Positions 9,326 to 28,098 of a DNA stretch of 64,000 nt are shown piece after piece. How positions within the stretch are numbered: the first letter of the stretch is position 1; each line of letters begins with the position of its first letter. The position numbers and the translations under genes were made by a program. Source of the DNA: an uncultured Nitrososphaerales archaeon (GTDB lineage Archaea > Thermoproteota > Nitrososphaeria > Nitrososphaerales > Nitrososphaeraceae); assembly GCA_963709405.1 (NCBI GenBank), contig CAVPXM010000054.1:32881-96880 (forward strand), in the 5' to 3' direction. Under the pieces are notes generated by a model. It was not told the origin of the DNA and ran no database searches. It saw nothing but the letters and a program-made list of their open reading frames with translations.

Positions 9326-9985
9326 TTGTTGTGGCTTTTGGCTAGACTGCTAGATGTAGGTTTAGATCGTATTCGTAATATAATTACGGATATGGCTAGC
9401 CTAGCTGAAATCTCGGTGTTCTCTGCTTTAGAGGCGTATCAAAGCGAAGGCAATGCAAAGAAACACATTTTTGAGCAATCAGAAAAGCTCAAAATGCTAC
9501 AAGACGAGGTAACTGATCTTGCAGTAGAACTGATAGCGCGCTATCAACCTGTTGCTACTGATCTCAGGTTTATCAAGTCTTGTATGGAAGTTGCATATGG
9601 ATTTTCTAGGTATGGACGCTACTCCTATGACATTGTAGATGTACTTGAAACGCTTGGGCCTTTATCGGGTTGTGATAAGTCTGCAGTTTCAGAAATGGCA
9701 ATAACTGTCAGAAAAATGATTCTACTAAGTGTAGATGCGTTACAGTCTAGAGACAAAACGGCTGCGCAGGATCTATATCAAATGGATGACACAGTCGATA
9801 CTCTTTACAGAAAATATTTGCGGGAACTTGTTTCATCCCTATCAAAAAATAGTTCAGAAGAACCACGGTGCTATATTTCGAATTTACTTATTTTAAGATA
9901 CTTAGAGCGAATTTCGGATCATGCATGTTACGTTGGAGATTCTATTTATTATATCATAACTGGTACCTCTAGTCCCAGGAGATAA
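9326..9985 (+). CDS. phoU: Phosphate transport regulatory protein PhoU
   Basis: IARYQPVATDLRFI, DDTVD, RYLERISDHA; follows pstB. Confidence 0.95.
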   Translation: MLWLLARLLDVGLDRIRNIITDMASLAEISVFSALEAYQSEGNAKKHIFEQSEKLKMLQDEVTDLAVELIARYQPVATDLRFIKSCMEVAYGFSRYGRYSYDIVDVLETLGPLSGCDKSAVSEMAITVRKMILLSVDALQSRDKTAAQDLYQMDDTVDTLYRKYLRELVSSLSKNSSEEPRCYISNLLILRYLERISDHACYVGDSIYYIITGTSSPRR

Positions 9986-10088
9986 CTGCCGTTACTAAAT
10001 ATCTAGAAATAGTATATCAATTTATTAACATCTATAAGCATGTGATCCATTGCTTGAGTACTGTCAATATCATAGTTAATTGTTGTAC

Positions 10089-11083
10089 TTACACAGATAG
10101 GTTACATTTTTGATTACCTACATGGGTTACACTTTGCTGCTTGTTCTTGTACGTACGGTGGATGTAATTAATCTTTAGAAACATCTCTGATGGAGTAAGG
10201 CCATTTATTCCTCCATGTTCTCTGGTTTCGTTATATGCTTTAACAAAGATATCATATCTTATTTTACCATCATCTGTGTTTGGTATATCCTCAACTGCTA
10301 AAAACTCATTCTTTACTATCTTGTTATATGCTTCTACCTTTCGTTGTAACTGTGGATAGGAATTGGGTATTTGCTTATCCTTTATCTGATTGTGTACAAG
10401 AAAACGTCTAAATATTTTGGATGTAAACTGTTTTCGATTATCATGCATTATCTTTCTGGGCTTGCCATTAATGATTATCCATTCTTCCAGTACGTTAATA
10501 ACATCTACTGACCTCTTTCTTTCAGACCACTTGCTAGCTACTTTTCTTGAACAATCGTCCAGACAGCTAATGATGTAATTCCTTTGACTAGAATTACTCA
10601 GATAGAAAGGTCCAAGGATATCCAACTGCGCACCTGTACCATATCGTTAGGTCGTTTCATTGCAAACCTTTTGTATATTTTATTATTCCTTGTCTTACAG
10701 TTTAGAACATTTAGACCATGTCTCTTTAGTATCTTGTATAAAGTTCGAGTGCTTAATGAGATTCCAACAACCTTTCTTAATCTAAACTTGATCCTATTAC
10801 ATCCAAATCTCTTGGTTAATCGTAGATCAAGTATTGTCTCCTGTATTTCAGATGTTATCTTCTTGTACTTGATATTATGAGGTCTTCTTGAGTTATCGGA
10901 TAGACCTTCTGTTCCTTTATGTTCATATCTCTTATTCCATTTGTAATACGTCTTCCTGGAGACACTATACTTTTTACAAATATTGCTTATGGTGTCACCA
11001 GTCCATTCTTTTTCGTGGATTAGGTTGAATCTAGTTATGATTTCTATATGTATACACTTCCTGACAGCAGAAGTGTAACCCAT
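10089..11083 (-). pseudogene. IS481 transposase, frameshifted near 10625
   Basis: HTH (SRKTYYKWNKRY..GLSDNSRRPH) and DDE core (QMDILGPF, DDCSR, KVEAYNK); short insertion relative to copy 2. Confidence 0.88.
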
Positions 11084-11159
11084 GTCTGTAATCCATGTGA
11101 ACTATTTTAAGGATTTCTGTTTTTCTTAATCTTAGTATAGTTCACCTCTGTTTACATAC

Positions 11160-11295
11160 ACATCCAGTAGTTTTTTCGGATAGTAATCCATTCGAGGCTC
11201 ACCCTCACTACCGTCTTTATCCATTTGTTAAGGAGATGCCACAGTTAGCTAATCGAGGCTTCACCCTCATACAGACAGTCGTGGTTAACACCTTA
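11160..11295 (-). ncRNA. Predicted bridge/seek RNA of the IS1111-type element
   Basis: Two GAGGGTGA(A)GCCTC hairpins each flanked by segments matching target (TGTCTGTA, TAGCTA) or donor (ATGGATTA) junctions; RNA ends approximate. Confidence 0.75.
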
Positions 11296-11329
11296 ACTAT
11301 AATGATAATAATAATTGAATTAATCATCA

Positions 11330-12388
11330 TCATCCTAACCTCTCATACATTCGTCTTTCTTTCATAATCCAATAAGCAACCTTCAGCAATTTGGCTGCAG
11401 CAGCTACAGCAGCTTTAGAATTACCTTTCTTTTTTGCTATTCTATAATAGAACTGAGCTATGTTACTATTCTTTTCAGTGCGAATATGTGCGTGAACACA
11501 TTCTAGCATTATCCATCGTAAGTATTTGCTACCTGCCTTTGTTATGCTGCTTCCATAATGTGTTACTCCACCAGAACTATGTGTTGATGGTACTAGACCT
11601 GCGTACGAACACAAGTGGTACGAATCAGGAAACCTATTGATATCTCCAATTTCACTAACGATTAACAAAGCTGAATAATATCCAATACCTGGAATCGTCA
11701 TCAGTAATTTAGCGATCTCATCTTCTTTAGCAAGCAGTAGTATCCTCTTAGATACAGTATTAACTTCATCATTCAACGATTTAATAACACGAAGACAACC
11801 ATTAATTCTATAATCATCATATCCTTCTAGTTTATCCATATTCCTTCTGGTAAATGTACTGGTACGATCGACATCTGAGGCCTCTATACCCTTCATAAGC
11901 GTAATGCTATGTACCTTATTCTTTAGTTTAGTTCTCATTCTTACAAGTGCGGATCTATGCCTAACAATGTCTCGTAGTTCCATTATTCTTTTGTTTGGAA
12001 CATAGCATTCAGCTATGTATCCTCCTCTCAGTAGATCAGCTAATTTAACCGCATCAAGTTTGTCGGTCTTTATTTTGGCCGAGGCAATAGCTCTTGTCTT
12101 GGTTGGATTGGATAATCGTATATCTAGGTGTCTCTTTCTCAAGCATTCATAAATGTTGTACCACATACCAGACGATTCCATTACGACCTTAGCGTTATTG
12201 CCTGGACTGAGACTATCGAAGAATTCATTCACTTTTATCAGGTTATTGTCTACTCTAGAATTATCCAGTACCTTTCCTTTTTCGTCAAGAACGGCTACCT
12301 GTAGATAGTTCTTGTGAACATCCATTCCCACAAACATACTCTTCTTACATACGCTACCGTCTGCTTTAGACTTACATAATTCGTTCAC
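11330..12388 (-). CDS. IS110-family DEDD recombinase/transposase, apparently intact
   Basis: GMDVHK, VVMES, KTDKLDA, TIPGIG, SEIGDINRF, YAGLVPSTHSSGG (catalytic Ser), GSKYLR; alternative ATG start at 12337. Confidence 0.95.
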   Translation of the reverse strand: MNELCKSKADGSVCKKSMFVGMDVHKNYLQVAVLDEKGKVLDNSRVDNNLIKVNEFFDSLSPGNNAKVVMESSGMWYNIYECLRKRHLDIRLSNPTKTRAIASAKIKTDKLDAVKLADLLRGGYIAECYVPNKRIMELRDIVRHRSALVRMRTKLKNKVHSITLMKGIEASDVDRTSTFTRRNMDKLEGYDDYRINGCLRVIKSLNDEVNTVSKRILLLAKEDEIAKLLMTIPGIGYYSALLIVSEIGDINRFPDSYHLCSYAGLVPSTHSSGGVTHYGSSITKAGSKYLRWIMLECVHAHIRTEKNSNIAQFYYRIAKKKGNSKAAVAAAAKLLKVAYWIMKERRMYERLG

Positions 12389-12546
12389 ATATAGTTAGCT
12401 ATAATGTCACCTATGTTAGGAAGTACAACAGCTAACCAAACCAATTTATCGTGTGCTATCCACAAGTACTATCATTGTATTTAGATTTCAATCTAAATCT
12501 AATAACAGCTTGCCACGACAAATAACTCGATACTAATTAACGTATT

Positions 12547-12592
12547 CTATATATTCTATATAGTAGTATATAGTGCTATTAGATATATATAG
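12547..12592 (+). promoter_or_regulatory. Five-unit CTATATAG-like array upstream of the 12614 gene
   Basis: ctatatat 12547, ctatatag 12556, gtatatag 12566, ctattaga 12576, atatatag 12585. Confidence 0.6.
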
Positions 12593-12613
12593 GTAGTTTG
12601 TTGATACTTAGAT

Positions 12614-13078
12614 ATGATAGAATCATCTACAGAAAAAATATTTCCAAAAGATAATAACGTAAAGATAGAGCAAACAAGGAGCCAAAATGATGATAAGATG
12701 GTTCAAAAGTCACTTACAAATGAAACTGGACTTACGATTATTCAATTATCCCGACAGATTAAGGATCTTGACAAGAAAAACACAAGAATAGAAGAACTAC
12801 TTTCATCTATCAAGAAAGACATTAAGAATGTAGTACTGGCCATAAAGGACAGTCAACAACTCGCATCAGACGGAGCAACTAGAATGAAGGAATTTCACGA
12901 TCAGATAGCTCAATTACAAATGCAAACACAAAAAATTGAACAGGTTATTAATGACGACTCTGTGTCTAAAAAATCAAAGAAAGTTAAGAAAGATAAGAAA
13001 GATAAGAAGCAGAGTAATAAGGAAAAGGATAAGAAAAGCAAGAAGAAAGCAAAAAGTATGAAGAAAAAACAGAAGTAA
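12614..13078 (+). CDS. Coiled-coil protein with Lys-rich C-terminal tail
   Basis: Heptad-like core; tail KKSKKVKKDKKDKKQSNKEKDKKSKKKAKSMKKKQK. Confidence 0.75.
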   Translation: MIESSTEKIFPKDNNVKIEQTRSQNDDKMVQKSLTNETGLTIIQLSRQIKDLDKKNTRIEELLSSIKKDIKNVVLAIKDSQQLASDGATRMKEFHDQIAQLQMQTQKIEQVINDDSVSKKSKKVKKDKKDKKQSNKEKDKKSKKKAKSMKKKQK

Positions 13079-13122
13079 TCGTCGTATATACACGAAAGAG
13101 ATATGCGGAGTCGTAATTCTGA

Positions 13123-13761
13123 TTGGAATTATATTTATTAAGACACGGTGAGTCAGCAAAAATTGCTGGTTTGAGCCGCGGATCTAAAGTCAGTAATGGA
13201 AATTCAGGCCTTACAGAAAATGGGAGAAAGGAAATTACCAGAATTGCAAAATCAATAAAGAGATTCAATACTACTTTTGATGTCATCCTAACAAGCCCTC
13301 TCAATTCTGCGATGCAAACTGCAAAGATAATTTCCAATACCTTCAAAATGAAAAATAAAATAGTGATTTGTGAAGAATTAGTTCCGGAAGGTAATAAACT
13401 AAAATTGTACAATAGGCTGCACCAGTTTACATCAGAATCGTCAATATTCATGGTCGGTCATGAGCCGTATCTCACGAATATAATCGATGGAATCATTTCG
13501 CAGCACCGAAACAGAAGCAATACAACGAGATCAGTAGCAAGTAGTACAAGAGTGAAAGGTATGACAAGAGTGGGAAGAGGTATCGTCCTAAAGAAAGGGG
13601 GATTGGCCAAAATAAGGATAATTTCAACTGCTCCTGAATTAAGAGGAGAGTTAAGATGGTTACTTACACCAAGGATCCTCAAATCCCTGTATGGAGAGTT
13701 CACCACGGTCGAAAAAATCAGGCAGAAAAAGGAAAACTCGGCCATTGAAAAAGTTTTGTAA
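13123..13761 (+). CDS. sixA: Phosphohistidine phosphatase SixA-like
   Basis: LYLLRHGE, LTENGR, ILTSPL..AMQTA, MVGHEPYL, LKKGG, LRWLLTPR. Confidence 0.9.
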   Translation: MELYLLRHGESAKIAGLSRGSKVSNGNSGLTENGRKEITRIAKSIKRFNTTFDVILTSPLNSAMQTAKIISNTFKMKNKIVICEELVPEGNKLKLYNRLHQFTSESSIFMVGHEPYLTNIIDGIISQHRNRSNTTRSVASSTRVKGMTRVGRGIVLKKGGLAKIRIISTAPELRGELRWLLTPRILKSLYGEFTTVEKIRQKKENSAIEKVL

Positions 13762-13969
13762 AGATATTTGTAAACTGTACAAAGCCAAGAGGAATAAGGC
13801 ATCGCCAAGTTATTACAATTTGGGATGTAAGCGTTGTGTGGAATGCGAGATATTTCTCAAATATGACGGCATGAAATGTCCTTGCTGCGATCATATCTTA
13901 CGAGTCAAGCCACATAACAACATATCAAAAGGAAAATTGCTTCAAACTGTTCACTACATATTAAATTGA
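13745..13969 (+). CDS. Small Cys-rich zinc-finger protein
   Basis: CKDIC..Y..G.KRCVECEIF..CPCC..LRVKP; TTG start at 13745 overlapping the sixA end is inferred. Confidence 0.7.
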   Translation: MKKFCKDICKLYKAKRNKASPSYYNLGCKRCVECEIFLKYDGMKCPCCDHILRVKPHNNISKGKLLQTVHYILN

Positions 13970-14598
13970 TAAATAAATAAGCATCGACAGGTATGAATTG
14001 AATAACTATCCTGCCAATCGCTATAGTTATGTCATTTTTTCACTTGCTCACGACTAATACTATCCTAGCACATGTCTTGAAATAGTCTCGAAGATTGTTG
14101 AGGAAAACTGGAACGAGTCTAGGTAGTGCTTGATTATCCTAAAATAGACTAAGGCCCAGATGATGACATCAGCGTATCCCAAGATGAAAGCCGCTATAGG
14201 AAAAGGCAAAGACCTACGATTGGAGCTCAGGTCAAACAAATCAAATGGCACTTATCGGGTTACTGATGAAAAGGTAAGGAAACTCCTAGAATATCGGCAT
14301 TCAATAGAGGATATGAAGTTGATACTCGACCCTGTGAGTTATTTGTTTATCTTTGATGCTATTAGAGTTGGAAAGAAAATTACGTTGACCTGGCAGCGGC
14401 GACGAATATCAAAAACACTTCCATGCCTTTCAGATACAACTCATCGAGTACTTCCTTGAGAAATATTCTACACTATACTGGCATGAAAGATTTGCAGTAT
14501 TATGACTTTAACGATGGAAGCTTCGCATCAATCTGCTATTTGTCTAGATATACTACCAGCCCACCTGATCTCAATCAATTATTGGAAGTACATTCTAT

Positions 14599-15051
14599 TC
14601 ATTTCAAGTCTTGTAATAGTGGTTGTTCTATTAGAGTTCTTATTATGCATAACAATTCTTCCGTCTCGATCGGCTTTAATACAAAATGCCTCTCTCCAAA
14701 TTTTGGATAAACTTCATTTTTATAAATTGCGTAATCACTTAAATCAGAAAGAGCGGTGAGAAAACACGTAGTCACTGTCGGATCGTTTCTTTTTATCTTT
14801 TTATATAAATCAAAGCCATTCATTCGTGGCATTCTTATATCAAGAATCAATAAATCGTATGATCCAGCAACATACCTGTCTAGTGCCAAAGTAGGATCTG
14901 TAAATGCCTCTACTTTAAAACTGTTCTCTTCTAGAATAAATCTTAATGACTTAAGAGAATCTGGTTCATCATCTACGATAAATATTGAATAATTCTTTTC
15001 ATATGTATTTCGCGGCACGTCAGGCTTGCAATACAAATAGATTCTGTGCAT
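14599..15051 (-). CDS. Stand-alone response regulator receiver
   Basis: IVDDEPD, YDLLILDIRMPRMNGF, FLTA, KP motifs. Confidence 0.92.
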   Translation of the reverse strand: MHRIYLYCKPDVPRNTYEKNYSIFIVDDEPDSLKSLRFILEENSFKVEAFTDPTLALDRYVAGSYDLLILDIRMPRMNGFDLYKKIKRNDPTVTTCFLTALSDLSDYAIYKNEVYPKFGERHFVLKPIETEELLCIIRTLIEQPLLQDLK

Positions 15052-15505
15052 ATTAGATTAAAAATGACCTTTTATTTTTTGTCGAAGGGATCTAAATACT
15101 TGTATATGGTCATATAGATAGATCAATAATCATGATAACAATTTGGCTTTTAGATTAAGTGTTTGCCTCTCACTTTGTCAGGTTGTCTTGGTAACTGATT
15201 TAATTCCCTTAAATCGTCGACCTTCGTCTGTATATCTGCATCTTACCTTTCTGACTGGATGGCTGATGAACATTTAAAAATATTAGATAAGGTTATGGAA
15301 TATTTCTTTCCCTAAATCCTTTTTGTAACATTTGCTGTAGTAAAGTCTTGGGAAAATAGGGGATTTTTTAAAGATGAATTGTTCAAAATGTTTCATATAA
15401 AATGTATTGCCTCTTTAAACACAGTCAACAGTTACACGGAGTTGTCCATATTAAATGATCTAATTTTAGCAGTCCTTATTGTTTATTAGTCAATAATATG
15501 AAATA

Positions 15506-15808
15506 ATGGCTAAAGAGGTTCGATTAGAAATGAATTGTGATTACTGCGGTCACCTGCTATCTGATCACGCTGTTAGTTATTATGCATCAGGACTGGTAAG
15601 AGTAAAGTGTTTTTTAGATAGTTTTGTAGATGAAGACAGAGTAAGATATTATAAGTGTAAATGTGAAGACATTTTGATAGATGTGAATTGGTATGATGAT
15701 GAAGAAGGCTGGGATTATCAATCACCAGATGAGATAATCAGGACTAGTCCATTCAAAACTTTAACAAATAATACTATAGATATCAAAAACGATCATCATA
15801 TAGTGTAG
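15506..15808 (+). CDS. Hypothetical Cys/His-containing protein
   Basis: CDYCGH..H..C..CKC pattern. Confidence 0.55.
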   Translation: MAKEVRLEMNCDYCGHLLSDHAVSYYASGLVRVKCFLDSFVDEDRVRYYKCKCEDILIDVNWYDDEEGWDYQSPDEIIRTSPFKTLTNNTIDIKNDHHIV

Positions 15809-15889
15809 GAGATTCTATGATGATTAATTCACCTTCTACACCCCGTTATTTATTATTTAATTATCATTGATAAATAACTACTTTCATTT

Positions 15890-16061
15890 TAGCAGAAAAC
15901 AATAGTTATTGATGATTCACCAGAAATTGTTTTTAAAGCCATTATTGATCCATACGAGCTAACAAATTGGTTTCCAGATCAAGCTATTTTAGAAGCAAAG
16001 GTTGGAGGGAAAGTAAGATTTATCACTCTTAAGAATACTCCCAAAAAATCAGAGGATCAGC
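15890..16061 (+). pseudogene. SRPBCC/AHSA1-domain fragment ending at the IS630 boundary
   Basis: IVIDDSPEIVFKAIIDPYELTNWFPDQAILEAKVGGKVRF. Confidence 0.7.
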
Positions 16062-16628
16062 TACACCAATTAAGATAAGTGCTCTGACATATTCCCAGTT
16101 AGATAATTTCTCATATTCAGATTGAAATGTTTAGTTCTAAAGTACTGTCCTAGCCTTATTCTAAATTCTGTAAATGATGGATAAAATGTTAATACTAACA
16201 GATCATTTTTAGATATATTCCACCATGAACTATATCTTCAAGTCAATTCAGCTTCACCATGAACTCTGGTGATGCTGTTGGAAGATAGATTGGTTTTAGA
16301 GTATCTCTTTGTTCTTCAAAGTACTTCCTTACTTTGCGGGATTTATGATGTTGAGGTGCCTTATCCGAGAATAAGTAACATTTTGGGAATTTATAATGTA
16401 TCTGTTTTAGGAATTCATAGAACGTATCCTCATCAAACCTTTCAAATTGTCTGAATAGCTGCTTTCCTTCAAGATTAATAGCACCAAATATACAGAAATT
16501 CCTGTGTGAACCTGTTATTGTAACTACAGGTCTGGAATCTTTATAGATCCATACTTTTCTAACAAGGCTGTCAAAGAAGAATGATTCATCCAATGATGCT
16601 GCGGTAAAATCCTTAGGTAGACAATCTA

Positions 16629-18903
16629 TACTGCCTAACATAATTTGATGCAACTGTTGATGGTCTTGGCCAATACAAATTTAGCTTGAGGGCATTGTGT
16701 ACCTAATCTGTTGGCGACTGGAGCTTTGAGCAACGCCTATAGAAATGAAAAAGACGCTGACCTAAGGGATTGAATTCTACTAAGTCAAGTGTCATATTTA
16801 ATGTCGTCATACCATATTCCAAATGTTTTGTTTAGGTATTCTGATACCGCAGTTTTTTGTTCTTCTATATTTTCATAGAATCTATTCCCACACACATCTG
16901 ATTTTATCTGCTGGTTTACTTTCCTTTCATTTGGATTTAGGTATGGTGCTTTCTTTGGTAGGTGAATAATGGTCAGCCAGTCTTTTTCTTTCTGTGCATT
17001 GATATAATTCCGTACCATTAGGCTTACATGGTATGAAGCGTTATCCCATATGAGTATGAGTCTTTTCCACCAATCACTTTTCATAATGTTTCTCTTGAGA
17101 TTCTCCAGATGGTCAATAGTACCTCGTAGAATTCATTCTATCATAGAAATCATACGTCATTAATTTCTCTTCAGGCCATAGCATGGATATATATGCGGAG
17201 AACTTCCTTCTACTTCCATTATGTTCTATTTTCAGCTGCTCGCCTTCAAAACTCATGGACTTGTGAATACAAGGTTTCTGTGTTATGGTAGTTTCATCTT
17301 CAAATGCCATTATAACTCTCTTTTTTTCAGAGCTGATGCTACTTGCTTGTAGTTATCCACTCTCTTTTTCCCTTGTTCATAATCCTCTCCATGTAATAGT
17401 TCCAATTTTGGTCTTTTGCATCTAATTCCCATATCCTTAGTTATTCTTTGTAGATGTTTGAAACTGATTGGAATATCAAGCTCATCTGTAAGACACCTTG
17501 CCAGCGACCTTAGACTCCATGTATTCCTTAGATAACCAAAGATATGTGGATCGTTAAACAATGCTGATAGAATAATCTCTTTGTTTTCGTCTGTTATGCT
17601 GGACTTCGATCCACCAGGTTTCTTCATCCTTACTCCATCATCAATCCCTTTCTTAATGTATGCAGCAATCCACCTTTGTACAGACCTGCTGCTGACTCCG
17701 TGTTCATTTGCTATATCTTCATAAGATCTACCTTCAACTTTTTGGAGTATAGCCAGTAACCTGCGGTATTCCTTTTTGTTATTCGTATTCTTCATAAATG
17801 ACTTTAACTTGTTCTTCTGTAGTATGGTAAGTATGAGTTTGGAACGATGATTCACAGAATGAAAATATGATTTGTCCCAAGCTATAATTATTTCGAAATC
17901 TACGTTATGTAATGAATGAATAACGACATAAACTTAGACACTTCACTTAGTAAGGCTTGTTAGAGAAGATAAGAAAGAAGCATCCAGTGTAGCTGAAAAG
18001 GAATTCCATAGATCTAGATGGTGGGCTTACAAATGGCTCAAGAGATTTGATAATGCTGGTTTGGAAGGACTAAAGAATAAGCATAGAAGTGGTAGACCTC
18101 CAGAAGTGTCAGAAGAAAGATCTACCAAGATAAGAAAAGAATTGTCAGAAAATCAATCAGGATGGATGGTCGCTAAAGAAGTCATGAATTTGATATATGA
18201 AAGAACAGGAGTCAAATATCATGAAGTTCATATCTACAGACTATTACATTGATGGGGTTTCAGTCCTAAAGTACCAAGAATGAAATTTGTTAATGCTGCA
18301 TCAAAGCAAGAGAAAAACGAGTTTCGAAAAAGGCAAGAAGGATAATCTCACGAATAATTCAAGGCTTTACCGTCACAGTTATGGACGAATCCATCTTCAT
18401 ACATGATTTCTTTGGTTCGAAGGAAGATGTGGACTGCAGATAGATAGAATAAGACCAATTGTAACTATTACTGGATCACACCAAAGGACCTGTGTATTTG
18501 GTGCTCTGTGTATAGACGGAAGACAGTTCTTTCGTCAGTATGAATCCTTTAACCAATACACCTTTCTGGATTATCTCATACAATTGCAAAGAAGGTTTGG
18601 AAAACTAATATTGTTCATAGACAGAGCACGTCAACATCACCGGTCCATCATGGTAAGAGAATACATAGAGCAAAACAAAGACGTTCTAAAAGTAATATAT
18701 TTTCCAAAAGGTTCGTCTGAATTTAATGCTATAGAAGAATGCTGGAGACAGGGAAAATATGATCTCTTGGTATCGAAATACTATCCGAAATTTGCAAATT
18801 TCAGACATACTATAGCCAACTACTATAGAACAAGACGGTTCAAACTAGACATAGTCAAATATCTATCGAGGAGTGTGAGTTAGCGAATTAATGTTACTGA
18901 GTC
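16629..18903 (+). mobile_element. IS630-family element C (middle, degraded) inserted in A
   Basis: TA at 16627-16628 and 18904-18905; imperfect IRs TACTGCCTAACATAATT / AATTAATGTTACTGAGTC; transposase fragments 18061-18252 and 18584-18883; removal restores KILDCLPKDF of A. Confidence 0.78.
16780..17950 (-). mobile_element. IS630-family element B (inner) inserted in C
   Basis: TA at 16778-16779 and 17951-17952; IRs CTAAGTCAAGTGTC / GACACTTCACTTAG; ORFs 17310-17855 (HTH), 17113-17310 (FEDE), 16785-17084 (WDNASYH, PYLNPNE). Confidence 0.88.
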
Positions 18904-19564
18904 TAGTATTTTCTGTGCTCTTTTTTAAACTGCTTTTTCTCCTTTTGTGGTACAGTATTAACGTGCACTTTCCTAGGTACCTTCTGTTTGAATCCCCACT
19001 TATGAAGCAATGTATAGATATAGATTTGATGGTAGTATACATTTCCTTCTTTTACTATCATTTCATTTACCTGTTGTGTAGTCCAGCCCTGTTTTCCTTC
19101 CTTCAGTTTCTTCCTTACCTTAAGAGCAACTTCTTTAGGTAACTTTGAGGGCCTACCACTCTTAGGCCTATTCTCTAGTCCGTTAATACCTTCCTTACGA
19201 TATCTTGCAAGCCAATCAGAAGTCCATGTTCTGCTTCTGTGCAGCTCCTTTGCAACACGAGCTGGAATCATTCCTTCACCTTCGACTTTGAGAACAAGTA
19301 ATAGCCTCTCCTTTAGTCCCGCTCGTGATTCCTTCCTGTACCAAGTTTCTAATTCTCCTTTACTGAGAGTCAAGACTCATTCAGGAAAGCAGATCAATGA
19401 ACAAAGCTATATCTCTTCCTGTACGAGGAATATGACAATTCCATCAATAATATGTAAGTATACTTATCTTAATTGGTCTAGGTCTAACTACACAAGCATA
19501 ATGATACGTGGATACGTTAGTCAGAATTATCTGGTACTATTGAGATATAATTTCTCTATTTATA

Positions 19565-20488
19565 TCAACTGATATTCATAATATTGAGAAACAAATTGTC
19601 GTTGCTATCTGAAAGATCTACTTTACAATATTCTGCAAACTGTTCAAACTTTTTCTGCCTATCTTCGTATAAATGTTCGATAACGCCATGAATGGAGCGA
19701 TCCTTGTGATGATTTTTCAGATATGCAATGGTTGTATCATAGTCATGAATCGTGCCGAGCATATCTTGGACTTTTTCTAATTCTTGTATCAATTGAGACA
19801 CTTTATCTTCATCTTTATTTTTGCCGTTTTCACCAATTGGTAAAAGTTCTAACAGATAACGAAGCTTTTTACAATCCTTTCGCATTTCATGCAATTCTGA
19901 TATCCTCTTAGGAGAACTAAGTACTATAGGATAATTCCTTTCTATTGTATTGGCCAATTTGCAAACAGCATTATTAAATCTTTTCTCTAGCTTCGTTTCT
20001 GATTTATTGGTCATGTTACCATCAAGTTTAGGAAGGCTTAATTTTCTTAAATCCAAAGCTATGCTCTTCGCTTCGCTGAGCGTTCTATTTCTAAGAGTTT
20101 TTAGCGACTTGAATATGTTCGTACTTGTTTGTGAGGACTGTAGCTGTTGTCCTGGTTTTGGTAAATGCTCAACAGGTACATATTTGGATAACATGTCGAA
20201 AATAATGTCGTAATCTCTTATCTTGCTATTTATGGAAAAAAGTTCCTTACCTTTCGCTACAAATTCTTTCATTTTCTTTCTATTTCGGATTGCCTTTGGA
20301 AGTGATTGATAGCTAGCTCGTAGTCTTCTGATCGAGGTCCTAATATCATGAATGTGTTCCTCATTAGGATCCTTGAGATATACATCTAACCTATTGTTTA
20401 CTCGTTGGATATTTCTCTCTGACTTGTCTAGATATGTCTTGGGATCAATAGCATACAAAATATTATTAATGGAAATATATTTCGACAT
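19565..20488 (-). CDS. CHAD-domain (polyphosphate-binding) protein
   Basis: EHIHDIRTSIRRLR, IRDYDI, LHEMRKDCKKLRYLLE, QDMLGTIHDYD. Confidence 0.92.
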   Translation of the reverse strand: MSKYISINNILYAIDPKTYLDKSERNIQRVNNRLDVYLKDPNEEHIHDIRTSIRRLRASYQSLPKAIRNRKKMKEFVAKGKELFSINSKIRDYDIIFDMLSKYVPVEHLPKPGQQLQSSQTSTNIFKSLKTLRNRTLSEAKSIALDLRKLSLPKLDGNMTNKSETKLEKRFNNAVCKLANTIERNYPIVLSSPKRISELHEMRKDCKKLRYLLELLPIGENGKNKDEDKVSQLIQELEKVQDMLGTIHDYDTTIAYLKNHHKDRSIHGVIEHLYEDRQKKFEQFAEYCKVDLSDSNDNLFLNIMNIS

Positions 20489-20544
20489 AATGTAATTTAT
20501 ACGCGCATTTACAATATTAATACCGCTGCACTTATAACTGTTGT

Positions 20545-20853
20545 CCAGGGGCCCGTCAGGCGAAAGACCATGGTGTACCCACTATGATAGAGCGAGATGG
20601 TGTTGTCACAGGCTACGCAGCAGGTATTGGTATACTTGGTCATGCAGTCGCAAGGTCAAACCAGGAGCTGAAGGCATTGATTGCTAATGCGTCTGCAATT
20701 CTTGGTCCGGGTTTCTTTGTGCCTGCCCGGTACTACGAAGTAATAAATTGGTGCCTTGAAAATAGCTTTCAAATTGGCTGGCCTGCAGATCTGATGACCA
20801 TAGGTCCCTATCAAGAACCACTGGCGTCTTTCCTTCCATCTTTGGCGTATTGA
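20545..20853 (+). pseudogene. C-terminal fragment of a GNAT-like protein
   Basis: IERDGVVTGYAAGIGILGHAVA..GFFVPAR..WCLENS..LMTIGPYQEP; no N-terminus; abrupt GC rise. Confidence 0.55.
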
Positions 20854-21044
20854 AATTGTTATTGATCGTTCAAGCATACAGCCATGTCTTACGTGTTAGT
20901 TTAATGAAGCAATGTATCGATGCATCAAGAATGGCAGCCCTAACGGTATTATTAATATATGATAAATTATAAAAATGGTTATTATGATGAGGTAGACGAC
21001 CAATAAATGAATGGTGTATGGTCACCAGCCATCATATTGTTTGA

Positions 21045-22100
21045 TTATGATGATGAAGACGAAGGCATATCCATAGACATCATCATATTGTCTGATGAAG
21101 ACGAAGGCATATCCATAGACATTCGCATCATTTCATCATCATCCTCCTCATCGCCGCTATTCATTGAATCGGATGGCAATGATATCAAAGCAGTTGCAGA
21201 CAGTATTCCGAGGGCAATAAAACCTATACCCGTAATTCTTGCGATCCAGAGACCCCCTCTGGTCCATACTTTCTCTGTAAAGATGATTGCCGCAAATAAT
21301 CCCATCCAGAGCACATTCATCCATCCGAGTGCTACCATAGGTAGAAAATAAGGCCAACAACAGCCAAGACAGTATAGACCGTGATACATTCCCATCTTCA
21401 ATGCTCCTGCTCTGCCCTTTTGCCAGCGTCTCATAAAGAAGCTGAGAGGAGATTCGCAATATCCAAGACACTTAGTTTTTAATGAGCTGAATTGATATAT
21501 GCCGGCCACGATCAGTACGATTCCATAAATAGTATTAGTCGATAATAGCTGTTGTTGTTGACTATCATTTAGTCCTAACTGTAGAAACAGTGTATCAAAG
21601 AAAAAGGACCAGCCAGCCAGTAGAACTATCCCTGTCAAGGCCCAGATAGCAAGATATGCTGATACAAAGAGAATGATATCAGGTGATTTTGATTTTGATT
21701 GCAATATGTTCCTCAATCTATGATTAATATTACTCTTGTCTCCACCTCCTTCTGCGAGATGTCCTATGCCATTGTTGGTAATACTATCATAGTTGAGATC
21801 GTTGCTGCTCCTGTGATATGCCATTTGACTATTACTATTACTATTACCTAGATTATTGTTGGGAGCATTATTCATGCTAATAAGTCGATTATAAACAAGG
21901 ATCATCTGTACTATAGCGGGGAACATCATAGCAGCCATTCCTGCTGTCCAAATTACCACAAATATAGATAGTGCTGCTGGATTGTGATAAAATGTCATCA
22001 TGGATGACATCATCGCGTCATATTGCCATATCGACACTAACCATGTCAACAAAGAAATCGATATTACGATTGCAATGATTATGAGAGCTGAGGTGTTCAT
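21045..22100 (-). CDS. DUF2182-family predicted metal-binding membrane protein
   Basis: MAAMMFP, GIYQFSSLKTKCLGYCESP, G.YCLGCCW..M..LG.MN..WM..EK. Confidence 0.88.
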   Translation of the reverse strand: MNTSALIIIAIVISISLLTWLVSIWQYDAMMSSMMTFYHNPAALSIFVVIWTAGMAAMMFPAIVQMILVYNRLISMNNAPNNNLGNSNSNSQMAYHRSSNDLNYDSITNNGIGHLAEGGGDKSNINHRLRNILQSKSKSPDIILFVSAYLAIWALTGIVLLAGWSFFFDTLFLQLGLNDSQQQQLLSTNTIYGIVLIVAGIYQFSSLKTKCLGYCESPLSFFMRRWQKGRAGALKMGMYHGLYCLGCCWPYFLPMVALGWMNVLWMGLFAAIIFTEKVWTRGGLWIARITGIGFIALGILSATALISLPSDSMNSGDEEDDDEMMRMSMDMPSSSSDNMMMSMDMPSSSSS

Positions 22101-22234
22101 ATCATCTTATTTTTTTCGAGCTAGAATTTAGTACCACTGTCTATTTATCTTTCTTCTGCATTACAGTCACATTTCACCATCTAAGTAGGACTTCAATTTA
22201 CGGTAATTCTCAGTTAAGGATTCTGTCAAATCCT

Positions 22235-22954
22235 TTAACTGTTGTATTCGTCATGGCGGCGGACCCAGAATTGAGGGAAATCGTGACCGGCCTCATCCCG
22301 GCCCTTGGGAACTAGATCAAGGTAGTGATATGCAACATTTAACATATCGATGCCACGAGCATAAGCTGAGTAGGTGTGAAACACGCGACCTCTGGGGTCC
22401 TTGAAAAATACGCTGACTCCTTCTCGCTCCGGGCTAGGGCTTGGCTTGTAGCGTGTATAGTTGTAGAATGCTTCATTCCTGGCTAACTGTTCCTGTGTGA
22501 AAGACACGTGGTAGTCAAAATTGAAATCTGTATCGTAGGAAGAGACCCACTTGAAATCCCATCCCATCCTCTTTTGGTACTCCGCAAGCTTGCTGTAAGG
22601 TGTCCGAGAAACAGCAATCATGGTCATATCTCTTTGGTTCAAGTGCACAATAATTCCATTGAAATTGTCCGCCCAAAAGGAACAATGCAAACATCCTGCT
22701 TCCCAGCTTGGATCAAACATAAAGTGATAGACTAATAGTTGGCTTCTTCCGTCAAAAAGTTCTGACAGGGTTTGTTTCCCATTCTGTCCCTCGAAGACAT
22801 ACTCTTTATTAACGGCCACCCATGGCAGATCACGTCGTTGCTGGCTAAGTTGATCCTGCAAAGTTGTGAACTCCTTTTCCTTCTTGAGGAGTGCTTTGCG
22901 AGCCTCGATCCATTCCTCATCTGAAACAGTCTTATGCATAGCCGTTCTATTCAT
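22235..22954 (-). CDS. DUF899-family thioredoxin-like protein
   Basis: W..ARKALL.KEKE.T, RRDLPW, LFDGRSQL.VYHFMF, CLHCS, FHTYSAYARG, LDLVPKGRDE. Confidence 0.92.
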   Translation of the reverse strand: MNRTAMHKTVSDEEWIEARKALLKKEKEFTTLQDQLSQQRRDLPWVAVNKEYVFEGQNGKQTLSELFDGRSQLLVYHFMFDPSWEAGCLHCSFWADNFNGIIVHLNQRDMTMIAVSRTPYSKLAEYQKRMGWDFKWVSSYDTDFNFDYHVSFTQEQLARNEAFYNYTRYKPSPSPEREGVSVFFKDPRGRVFHTYSAYARGIDMLNVAYHYLDLVPKGRDEAGHDFPQFWVRRHDEYNS

Positions 22955-22973
22955 GAAACAATAAAAACCATTG

Positions 22974-22987
22974 CTCCCCTTGGGGAG
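22974..22987. promoter_or_regulatory. Palindrome CTCCCC-TT-GGGGAG in a divergent promoter (candidate operator)
   Basis: Perfect 6-bp IR next to TTTATAA, between DUF899 and the wHTH gene. Confidence 0.4.
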
Positions 22988-23047
22988 GTTTATTTATAAG
23001 AAATGAAATAGTTATGTAATCTGCCACCCAAACCAAGACGGAACAAG

Positions 23048-23335
23048 ATGGAGTTATATAATGACATTCTCAAAGCCATTATGGATGAAATAACAAATGA
23101 CGATGATCGTGTGGCAAAACCTACAAGAGTACAGCTTCGCAGTAATCTTGCATACGATAAACTTGCTAGATATCTTGATGAGCTAGAAAGCAAGAAAATG
23201 ATATTACAAAGCCCACTTATGATAACCGAAAAAGGGAGAGACTTTCTACAAGACTATGATAGAATATCTAATTTTATCCTTGAAATGGGTATAAAATATT
23301 TAGATATGTTACATGATGAAATGAGAGGAGTTTAA
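23048..23335 (+). CDS. Winged-helix transcriptional regulator
   Basis: DILKAI..KPTRVQLRSNLAYDKLARYLDELE..ITEKGRDFL. Confidence 0.88.
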   Translation: MELYNDILKAIMDEITNDDDRVAKPTRVQLRSNLAYDKLARYLDELESKKMILQSPLMITEKGRDFLQDYDRISNFILEMGIKYLDMLHDEMRGV

Positions 23336-23342
23336 AAGAAAT

Positions 23343-23969
23343 ATGGATACTAAAAACAAGAACGATTTAAAAAATTATCGTCCAATGAAATTTGTTGATC
23401 AAATGGAAAGAAATAAACACATTCTTCTTTTGTACGACGATCAAAAATATGCATACTGGATAATAGGTAGATATTTTCACAACGGGTTTGCAAAAGGGGA
23501 ATCATGTATTTTCTATACGGCTGACAGACCTGAAATAATTGAAAAACAGCTATCCGCTGGGGGAATTGACGTAAACTTATTCAAACAGAAAAACCTATTA
23601 CGGATTTATGAAATAGAAAGTTCAGATGATAATAAGCACGATATGCTTCATACTCTTAATCAGATACGAGAAGAATCCAAAAAAAGCATGAAAGCCCCAT
23701 ACAGATTCGTTGGTGGAACAATAACGGATGTAGAAACAAAAGATGGAATGAAATTCAGCATTTTACTAGAAAAAACTGGGCATCAGCATTTTGATGAATT
23801 TAATTATTCTCAAATATGTTATTACGATATCTCTAAAATAGAGCCCACAAGAAAACATGAATGGATTAGTTCACTTTTGAGAAATCATCACTATGTTATT
23901 TATGCATCAGAACCAAATAAGGCAGTAGCATTTGAAACCGTGTTACTTGAACAAGACGATAATATGTAG
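23343..23969 (+). CDS. MEDS (DcmR-like) sensory domain protein
   Basis: HILLLY..YFHNG..KGESCIFY..GIDV..LLE..CYYD..L.NHHYVI. Confidence 0.8.
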   Translation: MDTKNKNDLKNYRPMKFVDQMERNKHILLLYDDQKYAYWIIGRYFHNGFAKGESCIFYTADRPEIIEKQLSAGGIDVNLFKQKNLLRIYEIESSDDNKHDMLHTLNQIREESKKSMKAPYRFVGGTITDVETKDGMKFSILLEKTGHQHFDEFNYSQICYYDISKIEPTRKHEWISSLLRNHHYVIYASEPNKAVAFETVLLEQDDNM

Positions 23970-24494
23970 ATCGTTAGGCGTACATACCTATTATACACTA
24001 TAAACTGTGGATTACAAGTGAATAGACTCAAGGGGCTCAATGGTATTTCTTATTTAGCTTTTCTTTTTGAGATGTCATTTCATATCTCTATTTTCTGATC
24101 AATTGTCCGTTCGTATTATAGATGTCTCCTGTCAAATGTAATTCAGCTGCATTTATAGACATATAATAAAAAGTATTTATCCTAGCATAAAGGTACGTAT
24201 GTATGTATTTAACTAATATTATAACTAGACCTCTTTATCAATATAAATATCAATTTGCTATTTGTGAATCATGTTTTTGGTGTCCAACTGTATTTCATAC
24301 ATCAATAATAAAACAAGAGTAGGAAGAATATGTTTACCAAAGGAGCGGAACTTACGATCGTCTGGACAACAAGACGGTTTTAATTAGTCTATAAATGGAC
24401 ATAGACAATTTTGACTGAAGATGATGTAATTGAATATTTGTTGCTATAGTCGCATCTACAGCCTCTGTGAACGTCACGTCGAGGTTGGATTCAT

Positions 24495-24640
24495 TTTTAC
24501 ATCCACCAAATAACTCAGTACATTTATGCCATCCGTGTTAGGGTGTCAATAAAACCCTCTTGCTTAGGATTATCTTCTATATCTATGAATAGGTGTCGAA
24601 GTAATTTTTCGACTCTTATCTTTGCCAAAATTATGCTTTC
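24495..24640 (-). pseudogene. folE: GTP cyclohydrolase I N-terminal remnant
   Basis: IRVEKLLRHLFIDIEDNPKQEGFIDTLTRMA*MY resembles the FolE N-terminus (EDP.REGL.ETP.RVA.MY). Confidence 0.55.
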
Positions 24641-24789
24641 CCTGTTCGTAATTACAATCAGGGATCCTTTGCTTATGTCTTGCCGCATGCTTCCCATATA
24701 ATACCATCATTAGCACAGTTACTGTTACTGTTACAAAATTAGGTCTCATTTCTTGACGTGTGTTAGCTCGTAATGTTGAATCTCTTCTA

Positions 24790-24806
24790 CACCAATTAAG
24801 ATAAGT
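24790..24806 (+). repeat. Solo IS630-A terminal repeat
   Basis: TA + CACCAATTAAGATAAGT identical to 16064-16080; no transposase follows. Confidence 0.8.
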
Positions 24807-24809
24807 TCA

Positions 24810-25400
24810 TTTTCCGAGTACATCAGGATTGATCAGTTGATCGTTTCTGTTACCCAATAAATCATGATATTGGTGAGTAATTCGTCTTTTGTAAACCTGT
24901 TTTCAATACCGCCCTGCAATCGCTCCAAGCATAGAACTTTTCGACAATCCACGATACCAAGCCAGCTGGAGAATCGTTCAAGCCTAACACGATATATCCT
25001 TAATCCTTACTTATGGAAATGGCCCTTATTATCGGCCATTTTTACTTTGAGCAACCATTCCGCCCAGCGACCGTCCGGCAATGATGATTTTTGTCAGCTT
25101 TAAAACCTCCGCAACATCTTTGACATCTTTGACATCTTTTGCCATCGATAAAATATCTGTTGCGCATGAACCTGTTGATAATCCAATGCCGTTGTAGTCG
25201 ATAGTTATGACATTGGACTTTGAAGCTAAAGCGTCAAGGAAGCATGGATCCCACGTATCTTAATTTCCTCGAAATCGATTTACCATAATAATAGGCAAAC
25301 CTTTACCAATCGAACGATAAGCAATTTTTCTGGCTGCCGGTTTCAACAAACTTCGTCTTTGTATTAACAGCTTCTAAAGAAGAATCGACATCCATTGGAC
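24810..25400 (-). pseudogene. Alpha/beta hydrolase remnant
   Basis: KIAYRSIGKGLPIIMVNRFRGN*DTWDP..TIDYNGIGLS..GRSLGGMVAQ with stops and frameshifts. Confidence 0.8.
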
Positions 25401-25549
25401 CGTCGCTGGGATTTATTATTTTGTTTTTCACGCTTATAATAATAAGTAACTAAGTAAATAAATCAGAAAGTTACAATTATGTAGTATACATACCAAGTGG
25501 TAACCACTAATTTAATATACCCAGTTTCACTACAATTGTAGGTTACAAA

Positions 25550-25780
25550 ATGTCAGAAGATGCAGTGGTTGACTGGGAATCCATTATCCATAAGAATGTA
25601 AGATCCAAGGACGGCCAAGATGCTGGAAATGTGGATGCAATAGAAGGAGGTACAGTAGTAATTACAAGTGAAGGAGACCGCAAAGAATACAATCTACCAA
25701 AATCGCAGGTAGAAGGATATGATGGTGCAGAAGTCTCTTTGAAAATTACTTTCGGAGAATTAGAGAAATATAAAGTTTAA
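25550..25780 (+). CDS. Small PRC-barrel-like protein
   Basis: DWESIIHKNVRSKDGQDAGNV..YNLPKSQVEGYDG; TTTAATATA box upstream, T-tract downstream. Confidence 0.75.
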   Translation: MSEDAVVDWESIIHKNVRSKDGQDAGNVDAIEGGTVVITSEGDRKEYNLPKSQVEGYDGAEVSLKITFGELEKYKV

Positions 25781-25921
25781 ACTGCAGATTTCCAAGCTTT
25801 TTTTATCTTTCCTTTTCCATCATTTTCTTGTTTTTCTGATCTGATTATAATATGTAAAGTCTATGAGAGTAGTTATGCTTTTACGAATTGCATAACTACT
25901 GGGACCAACAAAAAGTATCAC

Positions 25922-26218
25922 CTAACTGTTATTGTCTTTCAGCCTGGGCATAAACTCTAATTCTACTCCAAGCTCGTCATTATAATCAAATGTAAATGAT
26001 TTATTTGTCAAGATAGGAAGACTAGATAATTCATTATTATTTGCATTACACTGAGGACAGTTATTATGTGCTGGTATTCTAGTCTTATCAAAATAGGTTG
26101 CACACCAGTAACAGGTGTCACATAAAATGAATTTTGGTGGTGATGATAGACAGCGATCTCTTGTTTTAGCAATTGAGCTTTGAGGTTCATAATTAGTTAG
26201 AGTTGAGCCTTTTAACAT
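25922..26218 (-). CDS. Small zinc-ribbon protein
   Basis: FILCDTCYWCAT..CPQC..LSSLPI..GVELEF. Confidence 0.75.
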   Translation of the reverse strand: MLKGSTLTNYEPQSSIAKTRDRCLSSPPKFILCDTCYWCATYFDKTRIPAHNNCPQCNANNNELSSLPILTNKSFTFDYNDELGVELEFMPRLKDNNS

Positions 26219-26442
26219 TTATTGCAAAAAATGCCAAATAATGGCATATAAATTAATTGTATAGAGTCTATGTGATTCAATACTGCAGATAGTGATCTAT
26301 ATACCATCACATCGTTAACCAGTAACATTCAATTTCCGAAAAAGAAGTCTAATGATTCTTCTCATTATTGAACGGCTAAACCAATCACTTTTCCCAGTCG
26401 CAAACTAAGCACGTTTCCATTGGCAATAGAGGTATAATTACT

Positions 26443-27480
26443 TGTTGTACTTACACAGATAGGTTACATTTTTGATTACCTACATGGGTTACACTTTGCT
26501 GCTTGTTATTGTACATACTGTGGATGTAATTAATTCTTTGTAGAAACATCTCTGATGGAGTAAGACCATTAATCCCTCCGTGTTCTCTAGTTTCGTTGTA
26601 GGCTTTTACAAAGATATCATATCTTAGTTTTCCATCATTTATGTTTGGTATATCTTCTATTGCTAGGAACTCATTCTTCACTATCTTGTTATATGCTTCC
26701 ACTTTACCCTGAAGCTGCGGATAGCGATTTGGTATTCGTTTATCCTTTATCTGATTGTGTACAAGGAAATGTCTGAATATGTTAGATGTAAACTGCTTTC
26801 CACTATCATGCATTACTCTATCAGGTTTGCCGTTGATCACTATCCAATCCTCTAATACATTAAGAACATCTACTGACCTCTTCCTTTCAGACCATCTGCT
26901 AGCTACTTTTCTTGAACAGTCGTCTAGGCAGCTAATGATGTAATTCCTTTGACTAGAATTACTCAGATAGAAAGGGCCAAGGATATCCATCTGTACCATC
27001 TCATTTGGATGCTTCATGACAAACCGTTTGTAAGTTCTTGTTTTGGCCTTACACTTGAGGATATTAAGCCCATGTCTCTTTAGTATCTTGTATATGGTTC
27101 TGGTGCTTAATGAGATTCCAATAACCTTTCTCAATCTAAACTTGATCCTGCTGTACATCCAAACCTTTTGGTTAATCGTAGATCAAGTATTGTCTCCTGT
27201 ATTTCAGATGTTATCTTCTTGTACTTGATATTATGAGGTCTTCTTGAGTTATCGGATAGACCTTCTATCCCTTTCTGTTTGTATCTGTTATTCCACTTGT
27301 AGTAAGTCTTTCTGGATACACCGTATCTTTTACAAATATTAGATACTGTATCACCAGTCCATTCTTTCTCATGTGTTAGATTAAACCTTGTATTGATTTC
27401 TATATGGATTCACTTCCTGACAGCAGAAGTGTAACCCATCTGTGTAAGCTATAATGTCACCTATGTTAGGAAGTACAACA
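26443..27480 (-). mobile_element. IS481-family element copy 2 (transposase disrupted)
   Basis: TGTTGTACTT / AAGTACAACA IRs; perfect 6-bp TSD ATTACT (26437-26442, 27481-27486); DDE ORF 26451-27158 with the HTH part out of frame. Confidence 0.93.
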
Positions 27481-28098
27481 ATTACTACATAAATAAATTC
27501 GAACGCTTTATAGTTCTTCGTTACATAGGAAAAAGATACGTGCGTGGTGGCACGGATGGTGAATTACCGATTCTCCAGTGGTAGGGCTCCCTCGTCCTGG
27601 TACTGGAATCTGTGTATAAATCTTCCAGAAAAAAGTTAAGCTCTCTACGTTCACGATCTTCTTTAAAAACAGAATCTCATTTTCCCATCTACAGATGCTT
27701 CTAAATGACGTACATTCAAAGATTTGACGGGCTAGGTTTCAAAACTGGAATGAAATTATGTGAATGGGCTATTCATTTAACGATTTGTAATTGCTTGTCA
27801 TGATAACCTATCCACAAACTAGGCATGTGTCCACACACTCCCACCAACCATAAAATTGGCTTTTGGACATACTTGTCAATCAGCGACAAATACTGCTTTG
27901 TTGCATAATTCAGAAAGATCGTCATCTTGCAATGCTTTTAGTACTTCTCAGGAATAGGCCAAATGCGGATTACTCCTTTTTAGCTGAATGTTTCAAAGTT
28001 AGTTGACTAATATCGGATTCGTGCATCTATGTAAAAGTCCCTCCATGGCTAGCATATCCTACTATTATCTAATGCTGCCTAGACCAGTCTTTATTATC

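Follow-up and report, generated by a model that had tools for sequence, protein, structure and literature searches.

The closest described precedent for the arrangement reported here is that of IS4321 and IS5075, insertion sequences (ISs) found in the terminal repeats of Tn21-family transposons. For the IS1111 group of the IS110 family, Siddiquee et al. (2024; PMC11187229) give a longer downstream non-coding region, a GL-P----S(T)G motif and subterminal repeats with 7- and 3-bp extensions as the features that distinguish it from IS110 proper; the repeats usually measure 11-13 bp in that account and 7-17 bp in that of Durrant et al. (2024; PMC11208160). The former reports seekRNAs in which the complement of the top target strand comes first, and natural re-direction of the guides of ISEc11 and ISXne4. 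The latter predicts that 93% of IS1111 elements carry a bridge RNA in their right end, and its discovery of the IS621 bridge RNA rested on co-variation between RNA loops and flanking DNA. Here we analyse a stretch of 64,000 nucleotides (the window; contig C54, 32881-96880) from a Nitrososphaeraceae assembly of 4.83 Mb, 100 contigs and 37% G+C, labelled G000, whose source is most likely a soil ammonia-oxidising archaeon. In this window an IS1111-group element splits an IS481-like element. RNA-guided site-specific recombination very probably brought it to its place, the ATG-proximal terminal repeat of the host, with the IS481 end most likely serving as a multicopy landing site. Below, G0xx denotes related genomes, Cxx contigs of G000, and Lxxx loci from G000, its relatives or metagenomes.

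The inserted element belongs to the IS1111 group of the IS110 family (Table 1). Its transposase open reading frame (ORF) matches the Pfam domains DEDD_Tnp_IS110 (PF01548, 6.8e-27) and Transposase_20 (PF02371, 6.1e-24) and reaches 245 bits against NCBIfam NF033542, 'IS110 family RNA-guided transposase' (cut-off 140), in an alignment beginning at residue 19. Because GTG 12388 falls within the subterminal repeat, ATG 12337 (MFVGMDVH) is likely to be the true start. The translation contains GLVPSTHSSG, an instance of the C-terminal GL-P----S(T)G motif of the group, and the non-coding DNA is laid out as in IS1111, with 238 nt downstream of the gene versus 9-60 nt upstream. The subterminal inverted repeat is perfect over 8 bp, or 11 bp long if mismatches are allowed, and the extensions beyond it measure 7 nt (TAACTAT, 5' end) and 3 nt (GGA, 3' end) on the element strand, with the ends set by the uninterrupted IS481 consensus. 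The insertion is oriented and site-specific and lacks a target duplication; six loci share one position and five another, each with constant orientation. A protein search placed all nearest relatives of the transposase in Nitrososphaeraceae or Nitrososphaerales; G000 itself holds one intact copy and 14 fragments.

A sequence-only reading of this DNA had proposed that an IS110-family element at 11091-12397 splits an IS481-like copy (copy 1) otherwise collinear with 26443-27480 (copy 2), and both the alignment and Pfam matches on the two ORFs of the host gene bear this out. The right boundary, 12397, was placed correctly; the left boundary is 11092, the earlier excision having removed one base too many. 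The insertion does lie just upstream of the IS481 start codon (CAT at 11081-11083 on the minus-strand gene), 7-8 bp before the ATG at position 42 and 33-35 bp from the IS481 tip, a point that falls within a long imperfect terminal repeat and not beyond the repeat as first thought. Joining ...CATGTCTGTAA (to 11091) to GCTATAATG... (from 12398) exactly recreates the commonest IS481 end form in G000, which reads TGTTGTAC...GACATTATAGC-TT-ACAGACATGGGTTAC in gene orientation at the ATG-proximal end, and the exact 13-mer TAGCTTACAGACA stands uninterrupted 22 times in this genome. Contigs assembled from soil DNA likewise join 11090 to 12397, omitting exactly 1306 bases, in three sequencing runs (3, 2 and 3 contigs); even the best-matching public runs contain less than half of the sampled words, and their Logan contigs give no view of the circle junction, RNA ends or strand. 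Copy 2 (CATCTGTGTAAGC, 27437-27449) carries two substitutions at the site, as had been noticed, with ACACAGA in place of the ACAGACA of the occupied site. It has no insertion or deletion there: the extra base once reported is an artefact of the boundary, arising because the excision took one base too many.

The case for RNA guidance comes from the 3' non-coding region, which we aligned with those of relatives from related genomes. A conserved scaffold, GTTAAGG...ACCACGA-G1-TGAGGGnnnGCCTCG-G2-ACTGTGG...CCTTAAC, encloses two segments, G1 and G2, that match the two half-sites of the target and co-vary with the flanks in relatives (Table 1), upholding the earlier proposal of an RNA-guided element aimed at IS481. 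Ungapped comparison of G1 with the element's own right flank gave a mean of 7.0 matches out of 8 (nine elements), versus 3.8 (maximum 7) with the flanks of elements that have a different G1; the corresponding means for G2 were 5.3 out of 7 (seven elements) versus 3.3 with non-own flanks. The complement of the top strand lies 5' of the match to the bottom strand, the order reported for IS1111 seekRNAs in PMC11187229. The resident guide also suits the local IS481 variant. G000 has mostly ACAGACA sites and its element carries G1 TGTCTGTA, and in genome G043, where G1 is TCTGTGTA, the IS481 sites read ACATAGA (three), ACACAGA (one) and ACAATGA (one). A second loop may be the donor-side guide, since it starts with ATGGATT, the sequence of the element's own 3' tip, and changes along with that tip in relatives (GGGTA, GGATA). 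In the RNAalifold consensus of the window element and its relatives, G1 and G2 lie on opposite sides of an internal loop; GTTAAG/CTTAAC and CCACG/TGTGG form its closing stems, and the hairpin UGAGG/CCUCG caps it.

Insertion at IS481 ends recurs among close relatives. Close relatives (at least ~76% amino acid or 78% nucleotide identity) provided 13 readable 5' junctions, at loci from G000, five other genomes (three genus codes), one further Nitrososphaeraceae record (L078) and one metagenome contig. Eleven of these lie within IS481-type ends. Six occupy the 33-bp site of the window element (type B: the window, G000 C42, L027, L055, L120 and L137), and five a site 8 bp from the tip (type A: G000 C44, G000 C60, L002, L003 and L078); at L002 this is the far-end tip, with the IS481 body present behind it. 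The C44 and C60 junctions had been considered as a deletion within an IS481 end, a candidate that we rejected: they are type A insertions, with the far-end tip 8 bp away. Two 3'-end remnants, on C18 and C82, have flanks starting TT-ACAGACATAGG and TT-ACACTGATAG.

More distant sisters extend the pattern to another family. The sequence GAGCC-TA-TCCCAAAA, the site of the lineage typified by L005, occurs 36 times in G000, every time at the extreme tip of a repeated element. Two G000 repeat families have the common terminal sequence GAGCCTATCCCAAAATT (examples L250, G000:C29:9700-11800, and L249, G000:C36:51780-54000). One of them is an IS5-family element, with terminal inverted repeats ~960 bp apart and two overlapping ORFs matching NCBIfam IS5; the other is ~900 bp long and has no long ORF. 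A sister IS1111 lineage (L005, L047, L162 and the C69 remnant) is predicted to target the GAGCCTATCCCAAAATT tip, and landing in IS termini is therefore common to sister lineages and not peculiar to IS481. Several copies of a more distant IS1111 relative on one Nitrosopumilaceae chromosome (L059, L061, L063, L079, L084 and L087) have a repeated 5' flank, ...AAAATTG.GAATTTG..CATTATGCA-T, and their target, too, is probably a repeated sequence.

Table 1. Features of the nested insertion in the window, and guide segments of related elements with the flanks beside them (positions in the window unless another contig is named).
Feature	Position	Strand	Details
IS1111-type (IS110 family) insertion sequence, 1306 bp	11092-12397	minus	1 ambiguous junction base (A); target duplication absent
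DEDD transposase ORF, 352 aa from GTG 12388	11330-12388	minus	Pfam, NCBIfam
3' non-coding region, 238 nt, predicted seekRNA/bridge RNA source	11092-11329	minus	downstream of transposase gene; scaffold conserved in relatives
Guide segment G1 (predicted), RNA sense TGTCTGTA	11270-11277	minus	reverse complement of right half-site T-ACAGACA, top strand
Guide segment G2 (predicted), RNA sense ATTAGCTA	11246-11253	minus	same sense as left half-site TAGCT plus first base(s) of IS
Second loop CGAATGGATTACTATCCG, candidate donor-side guide	11177-11194	minus	ATGGATT equals 3' tip of IS
Subterminal inverted repeat, 3'-end arm, ATGTGAAC on plus strand	11095-11102	.	preceded by 3-nt extension TCC, 11092-11094
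Subterminal inverted repeat, 5'-end arm, GTTCACAT on plus strand	12383-12390	.	followed by 7-nt extension ATAGTTA, 12391-12397
IS481-like copy 1: far-end inverted repeat, frameshifted transposase gene, right half of target site	10081-11091	minus	alignment, Pfam, NCBIfam
IS481-like copy 1: severed 33-bp tip of ATG-proximal terminal repeat	12398-12430	minus	IS481 end comparison
IS481-like copy 2, uninterrupted	26443-27480	minus	6-bp target duplication ATTACT; reading frame broken
L002 (same genus), 76% protein identity			G1 TCTGTGTA; G2 GTGTACT; flanks TTGTACT / T-ACACAGA; site TGTTGTAC-TT-ACACAGATAGG
L027, 86% protein identity			G1 TCTGTGTA; G2 ATTAGCT; flanks TATAGCT / T-ACATAGA; 33-bp site
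L137 (metagenome contig), 89% protein identity			G1 TGTGTGTA; G2 ATTAGCTA; 33-bp site; right flank T-ACACAGA = copy-2 variant
L005, L047, L162, more distant			G1 TTTTCGGAT; G2 (T/A)GAGCCT; flanks (A)GAGCC-TA-TCCCAAAA
G000 C69 remnant	near 12386-12582 of C69		G1 TTTTGGGAT; grouped with L005, L047, L162 lineage in G2 and flanks
L028, L064, more distant			G1 TTGACCATA; G2 ATAAGCT; GTTAGC-TA-TGGTCA; flank TATGGTCA
L004, more distant			G1 CATAAAGCT; G2 TCAAGTT; right flank GACTTTATG; 5' junction not found

We propose that RNA from the 3' non-coding region would fold into an internal loop that the conserved stems close. Of its two sides, G1 (5') would pair with the top strand at the right half-site and G2 (3'), being identical in sense to the left half-site, with the bottom strand; the second loop is predicted to match the element's own 3' tip. 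In sister lineages the two guide segments would have been adapted to other positions and variants of the IS481 ends and to the IS5-like tip. Beside the anatomy, the exact site, its recurrence and the co-variation of guides with flanks, all observed directly, we infer that an RNA is produced, is bound by the recombinase and directs insertion. By analogy with bacterial IS1111 members at Tn21 terminal repeats, attC sites and repetitive extragenic palindromic (REP) sequences, the multicopy IS481 end is most likely a plentiful and harmless landing site, and the choice of IS ends may reflect a safe-harbour strategy.

Several observations weigh against this interpretation. Two of the 13 5' junctions (L088 and L139) are not recognisable as IS481. 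L027 and L137 have no IS481 body behind the 3' junction, so some occupied sites are IS481 end fragments, or else deletions came after insertion. The related copies are not independent and could have spread as composites of IS481 with the IS1111 element inside. At 5-6 nt the G2 matches are short, and their scores overlap those of non-own flanks (maximum 6 out of 7); several guide matches are imperfect (L027 7/8, L137 7/8, L005 8/9). Of the 20 predicted pairs in the fold, one shows compensatory change and the other 19, which show none, are uninformative (17 are invariant). Rfam has no match within 10000-12600, even at E values up to 1, and the single-sequence fold of the guide region is indistinguishable from shuffles (z -0.96, with 34 of 200 shuffles equally good). 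An RNA library yielded only two contigs, at 90-95% identity over 11221-11447 and 12121-12343, which do not demonstrate transcription. The element is also nearly inactive in G000, as judged from one intact copy beside 22 empty perfect sites.

At L027 (2739-2800) and L137 (1979-2050) the IS481 end sequence around a full sister element ceases 10-22 nt past the 3' junction, and at L027 the pentamer CTAAC stands on both sides of the whole short IS481 piece. These pieces may be solo ends, miniature derivatives or the products of later deletions.

The existence of the RNA is deduced from sequence alone, a further point against RNA guidance and one that would suit a recombinase protein that chooses its site unaided, leaving the matches in the non-coding region as by-products; G2 and the bases after it are identical to the 5' junction and could in principle be a copy of it. 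Set against this, L002, L027 and L137, at 76-89% protein identity, use different half-sites that track G1 and G2 within a conserved scaffold, and bacterial IS1111 members need their RNA and can be reprogrammed through it, according to PMC11187229. We therefore regard site choice by protein alone as very improbable. Still less credible is nesting by chance, in which mobile elements pile up in dispensable regions and the hit on IS481 is untargeted. G000 is indeed rich in insertion sequences (~50 IS481 ends, 36 IS5-like tips and 14 IS1111 fragments), but an identical nucleotide position and orientation at six loci for the 33-bp site and at five for the tip site effectively refutes untargeted insertion, and simple arithmetic gives an expectation of ~0.1 for the 13-mer in 4.8 Mb.

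A more elaborate account would build on RNA-guided targeting and turn it into an arms race, in which the IS1111 element is a hyperparasite that inactivates IS481, IS481 escapes through mutations in the guide-matched bases, and guides follow. Parts of it have some appeal. Type B insertions cut the 33-bp tip, with its TATA-like TTATAG, off from the IS481 gene, and in type A insertions the break falls within the far-end repeat, 8 bp short of its tip. The right half-site ACNNNNA takes at least a dozen forms at its four central bases across five related genomes, the three G1 forms differ at those same bases, and the fit of the resident G1 to local site variants in G043 and G000 amounts to some tracking; most far-end tips in G000, TTGCAC(A/G)GA, stand one or two mismatches from the type A guide. 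But the half-site search held the flanks fixed and so cannot show that the guide-matched bases vary more than their surroundings, and these bases have conserved repeat blocks on either side, a setting in which constraint is expected to be relaxed. In 35 full ATG-proximal ends from G000 they are not the most variable part, with 20% non-consensus bases at position 39 versus 57% and 49% at positions 11 and 15, and an entropy profile of the IS481 ends of this genome did not single them out.

The suggestion of escape variants in the sequence-only reading is not supported, on these figures and on two others. G000 has two occupied versus 22 empty perfect sites, and with one intact element the emptiness of the 22 is uninformative on resistance. 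The copy-2 variant perfectly matches the G1 form of L002 and L027 and is occupied in L137, by a sister with a differently tuned guide. As for silencing, the interrupted IS481 copy is frameshifted already, so that no cost to an active IS481 is shown, and because the inserted element is co-directional with the IS481 gene, read-through into that gene is as possible as disconnection from a promoter. We therefore consider the arms race unlikely, though not so remote as site choice by protein alone. Similarly doubtful is the broad claim that a whole clade of RNA-guided IS1111 elements in soil ammonia-oxidising archaea is confined to IS termini (IS481-like and IS5-like), its guides co-diversifying with substitutions in those termini. 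If this broad claim were true, it would amount to a natural, ongoing arms race of guide versus target between two layers of selfish DNA, with the upper layer limiting the spread of the lower.

The host element belongs to a large family in this genome. Copy 1 terminates at 12430, the corrected host end, and its gene is broken into ORFs 10598-11083 and 10089-10625, which match HTH_32, LZ_Tnp_IS481 and rve in Pfam and IS481 in NCBIfam. Copies 1 and 2 are ~85% identical and both have broken reading frames; the variant site of copy 2, with its two substitutions, lies at 27439-27446 (TCTGTGTA on the plus strand). Intact IS481-like copies score 220.2 and 218.6 bits against NCBIfam NF033577, where the curated cut-off is 224, covering 2-284 of its 284 positions, and the next family, IS3, reaches 123. 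G000 contains 27 full copies of 1032-1050 bp with terminal inverted repeats, and short-query searches of its IS481 ends returned 50 matches, with 51 matches assigned to each end type. Identical 6-bp duplications (ATTAGT, ATTAGG, ACTAGT and others) flank 19 of the 27 full copies. Bordetella IS481 duplicates NCTAGN.

The reading frame that opens with the ATG at position 42 meets an in-frame TGA, at codon 9 or 10, in 23 of the 27 full copies (MGYTSVGK*IHIEI..., MGYTSAVRK*IHIE...), and at least 13 copies have an open frame of 305-311 codons beyond the TGA, with no canonical start codon near its beginning. This early TGA is conserved in diverged subfamilies, for example at L248 (G000:C38:44250-45282) and in window copy 2 near 27410-27439. 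Such conservation suggests read-through, recoding or an unusual start, any of which might act as a brake on synthesis of the IS481 transposase.

The window also holds a second, distant IS110-family gene at 28099-29111 (minus), split into ORFs 28530-29111 and 28099-28500 and 37-40% identical to the first. Its long non-coding region lies upstream, to ~29400, an IS110-type layout, and ~600 bp separate the gene from IS481 copy 2; G000 C18 and C44 have similar copies. Immediately upstream of IS481 copy 1 is an ORF (9326-9985, plus) whose product we take, from its translation alone, to be PhoU-like.

Set beside the described systems, the window element is an archaeal counterpart of IS4321 and IS5075, with which it shares subterminal repeats, a single orientation and a single position within another transposable element's terminal repeat, a target that is multicopy and mobile. 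Unlike them, it resides in an archaeal host (Nitrososphaeraceae), where the targets are IS481-like and IS5-like ISs and not Tn3-family transposons, and where several sister lineages have guides re-tuned to different positions of the same IS ends. The seekRNA systems of ISEc11/ISXne4, ISKpn4, ISPst6 and ISPa11, as presented in PMC11187229, agree with it in the non-coding region downstream of the transposase gene, the 7- and 3-nt terminal extensions and a predicted short RNA in which the top-strand complement lies 5' of the bottom-strand match; ISEc11/ISXne4 agree further in having close relatives naturally re-directed through replaced matching segments. Differences from those systems are that the archaeal case is read from DNA sequence only, that its subterminal repeat is perfect over 8 bp in place of the usual 11-13, and that its transposase is distant, no bacterial relative exceeding ~40% identity in the protein search. 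Compared with IS621 as described in PMC11208160, the predicted RNA likewise has internal loops with guides for both target strands and for the donor, whereas the IS621 RNA lies upstream of the gene with the strand order reversed, and the 2-nt core is not clean here (target TT, 5' junction TA, 3' junction TT).

We found no description of such targeting in archaea among the paper listings and abstracts searched; the supplements of PMC11208160 and PMC11187229 may list archaeal IS1111 members. The locus clearly illustrates, in an archaeon, a behaviour that is already known, and its mechanism is not new. It provides a clean series of naturally re-targeted guides in archaea, with three G1 and two G2 forms in one scaffold, each beside its matching site, which is usable for working out the rules by which guides direct an archaeal IS1111 recombinase and for the correct annotation of nested ISs in Nitrososphaeraceae genomes. 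The targeting of other mobile elements' ends, known from bacterial Tn21-family transposons, thus recurs in archaea against two unrelated IS families.

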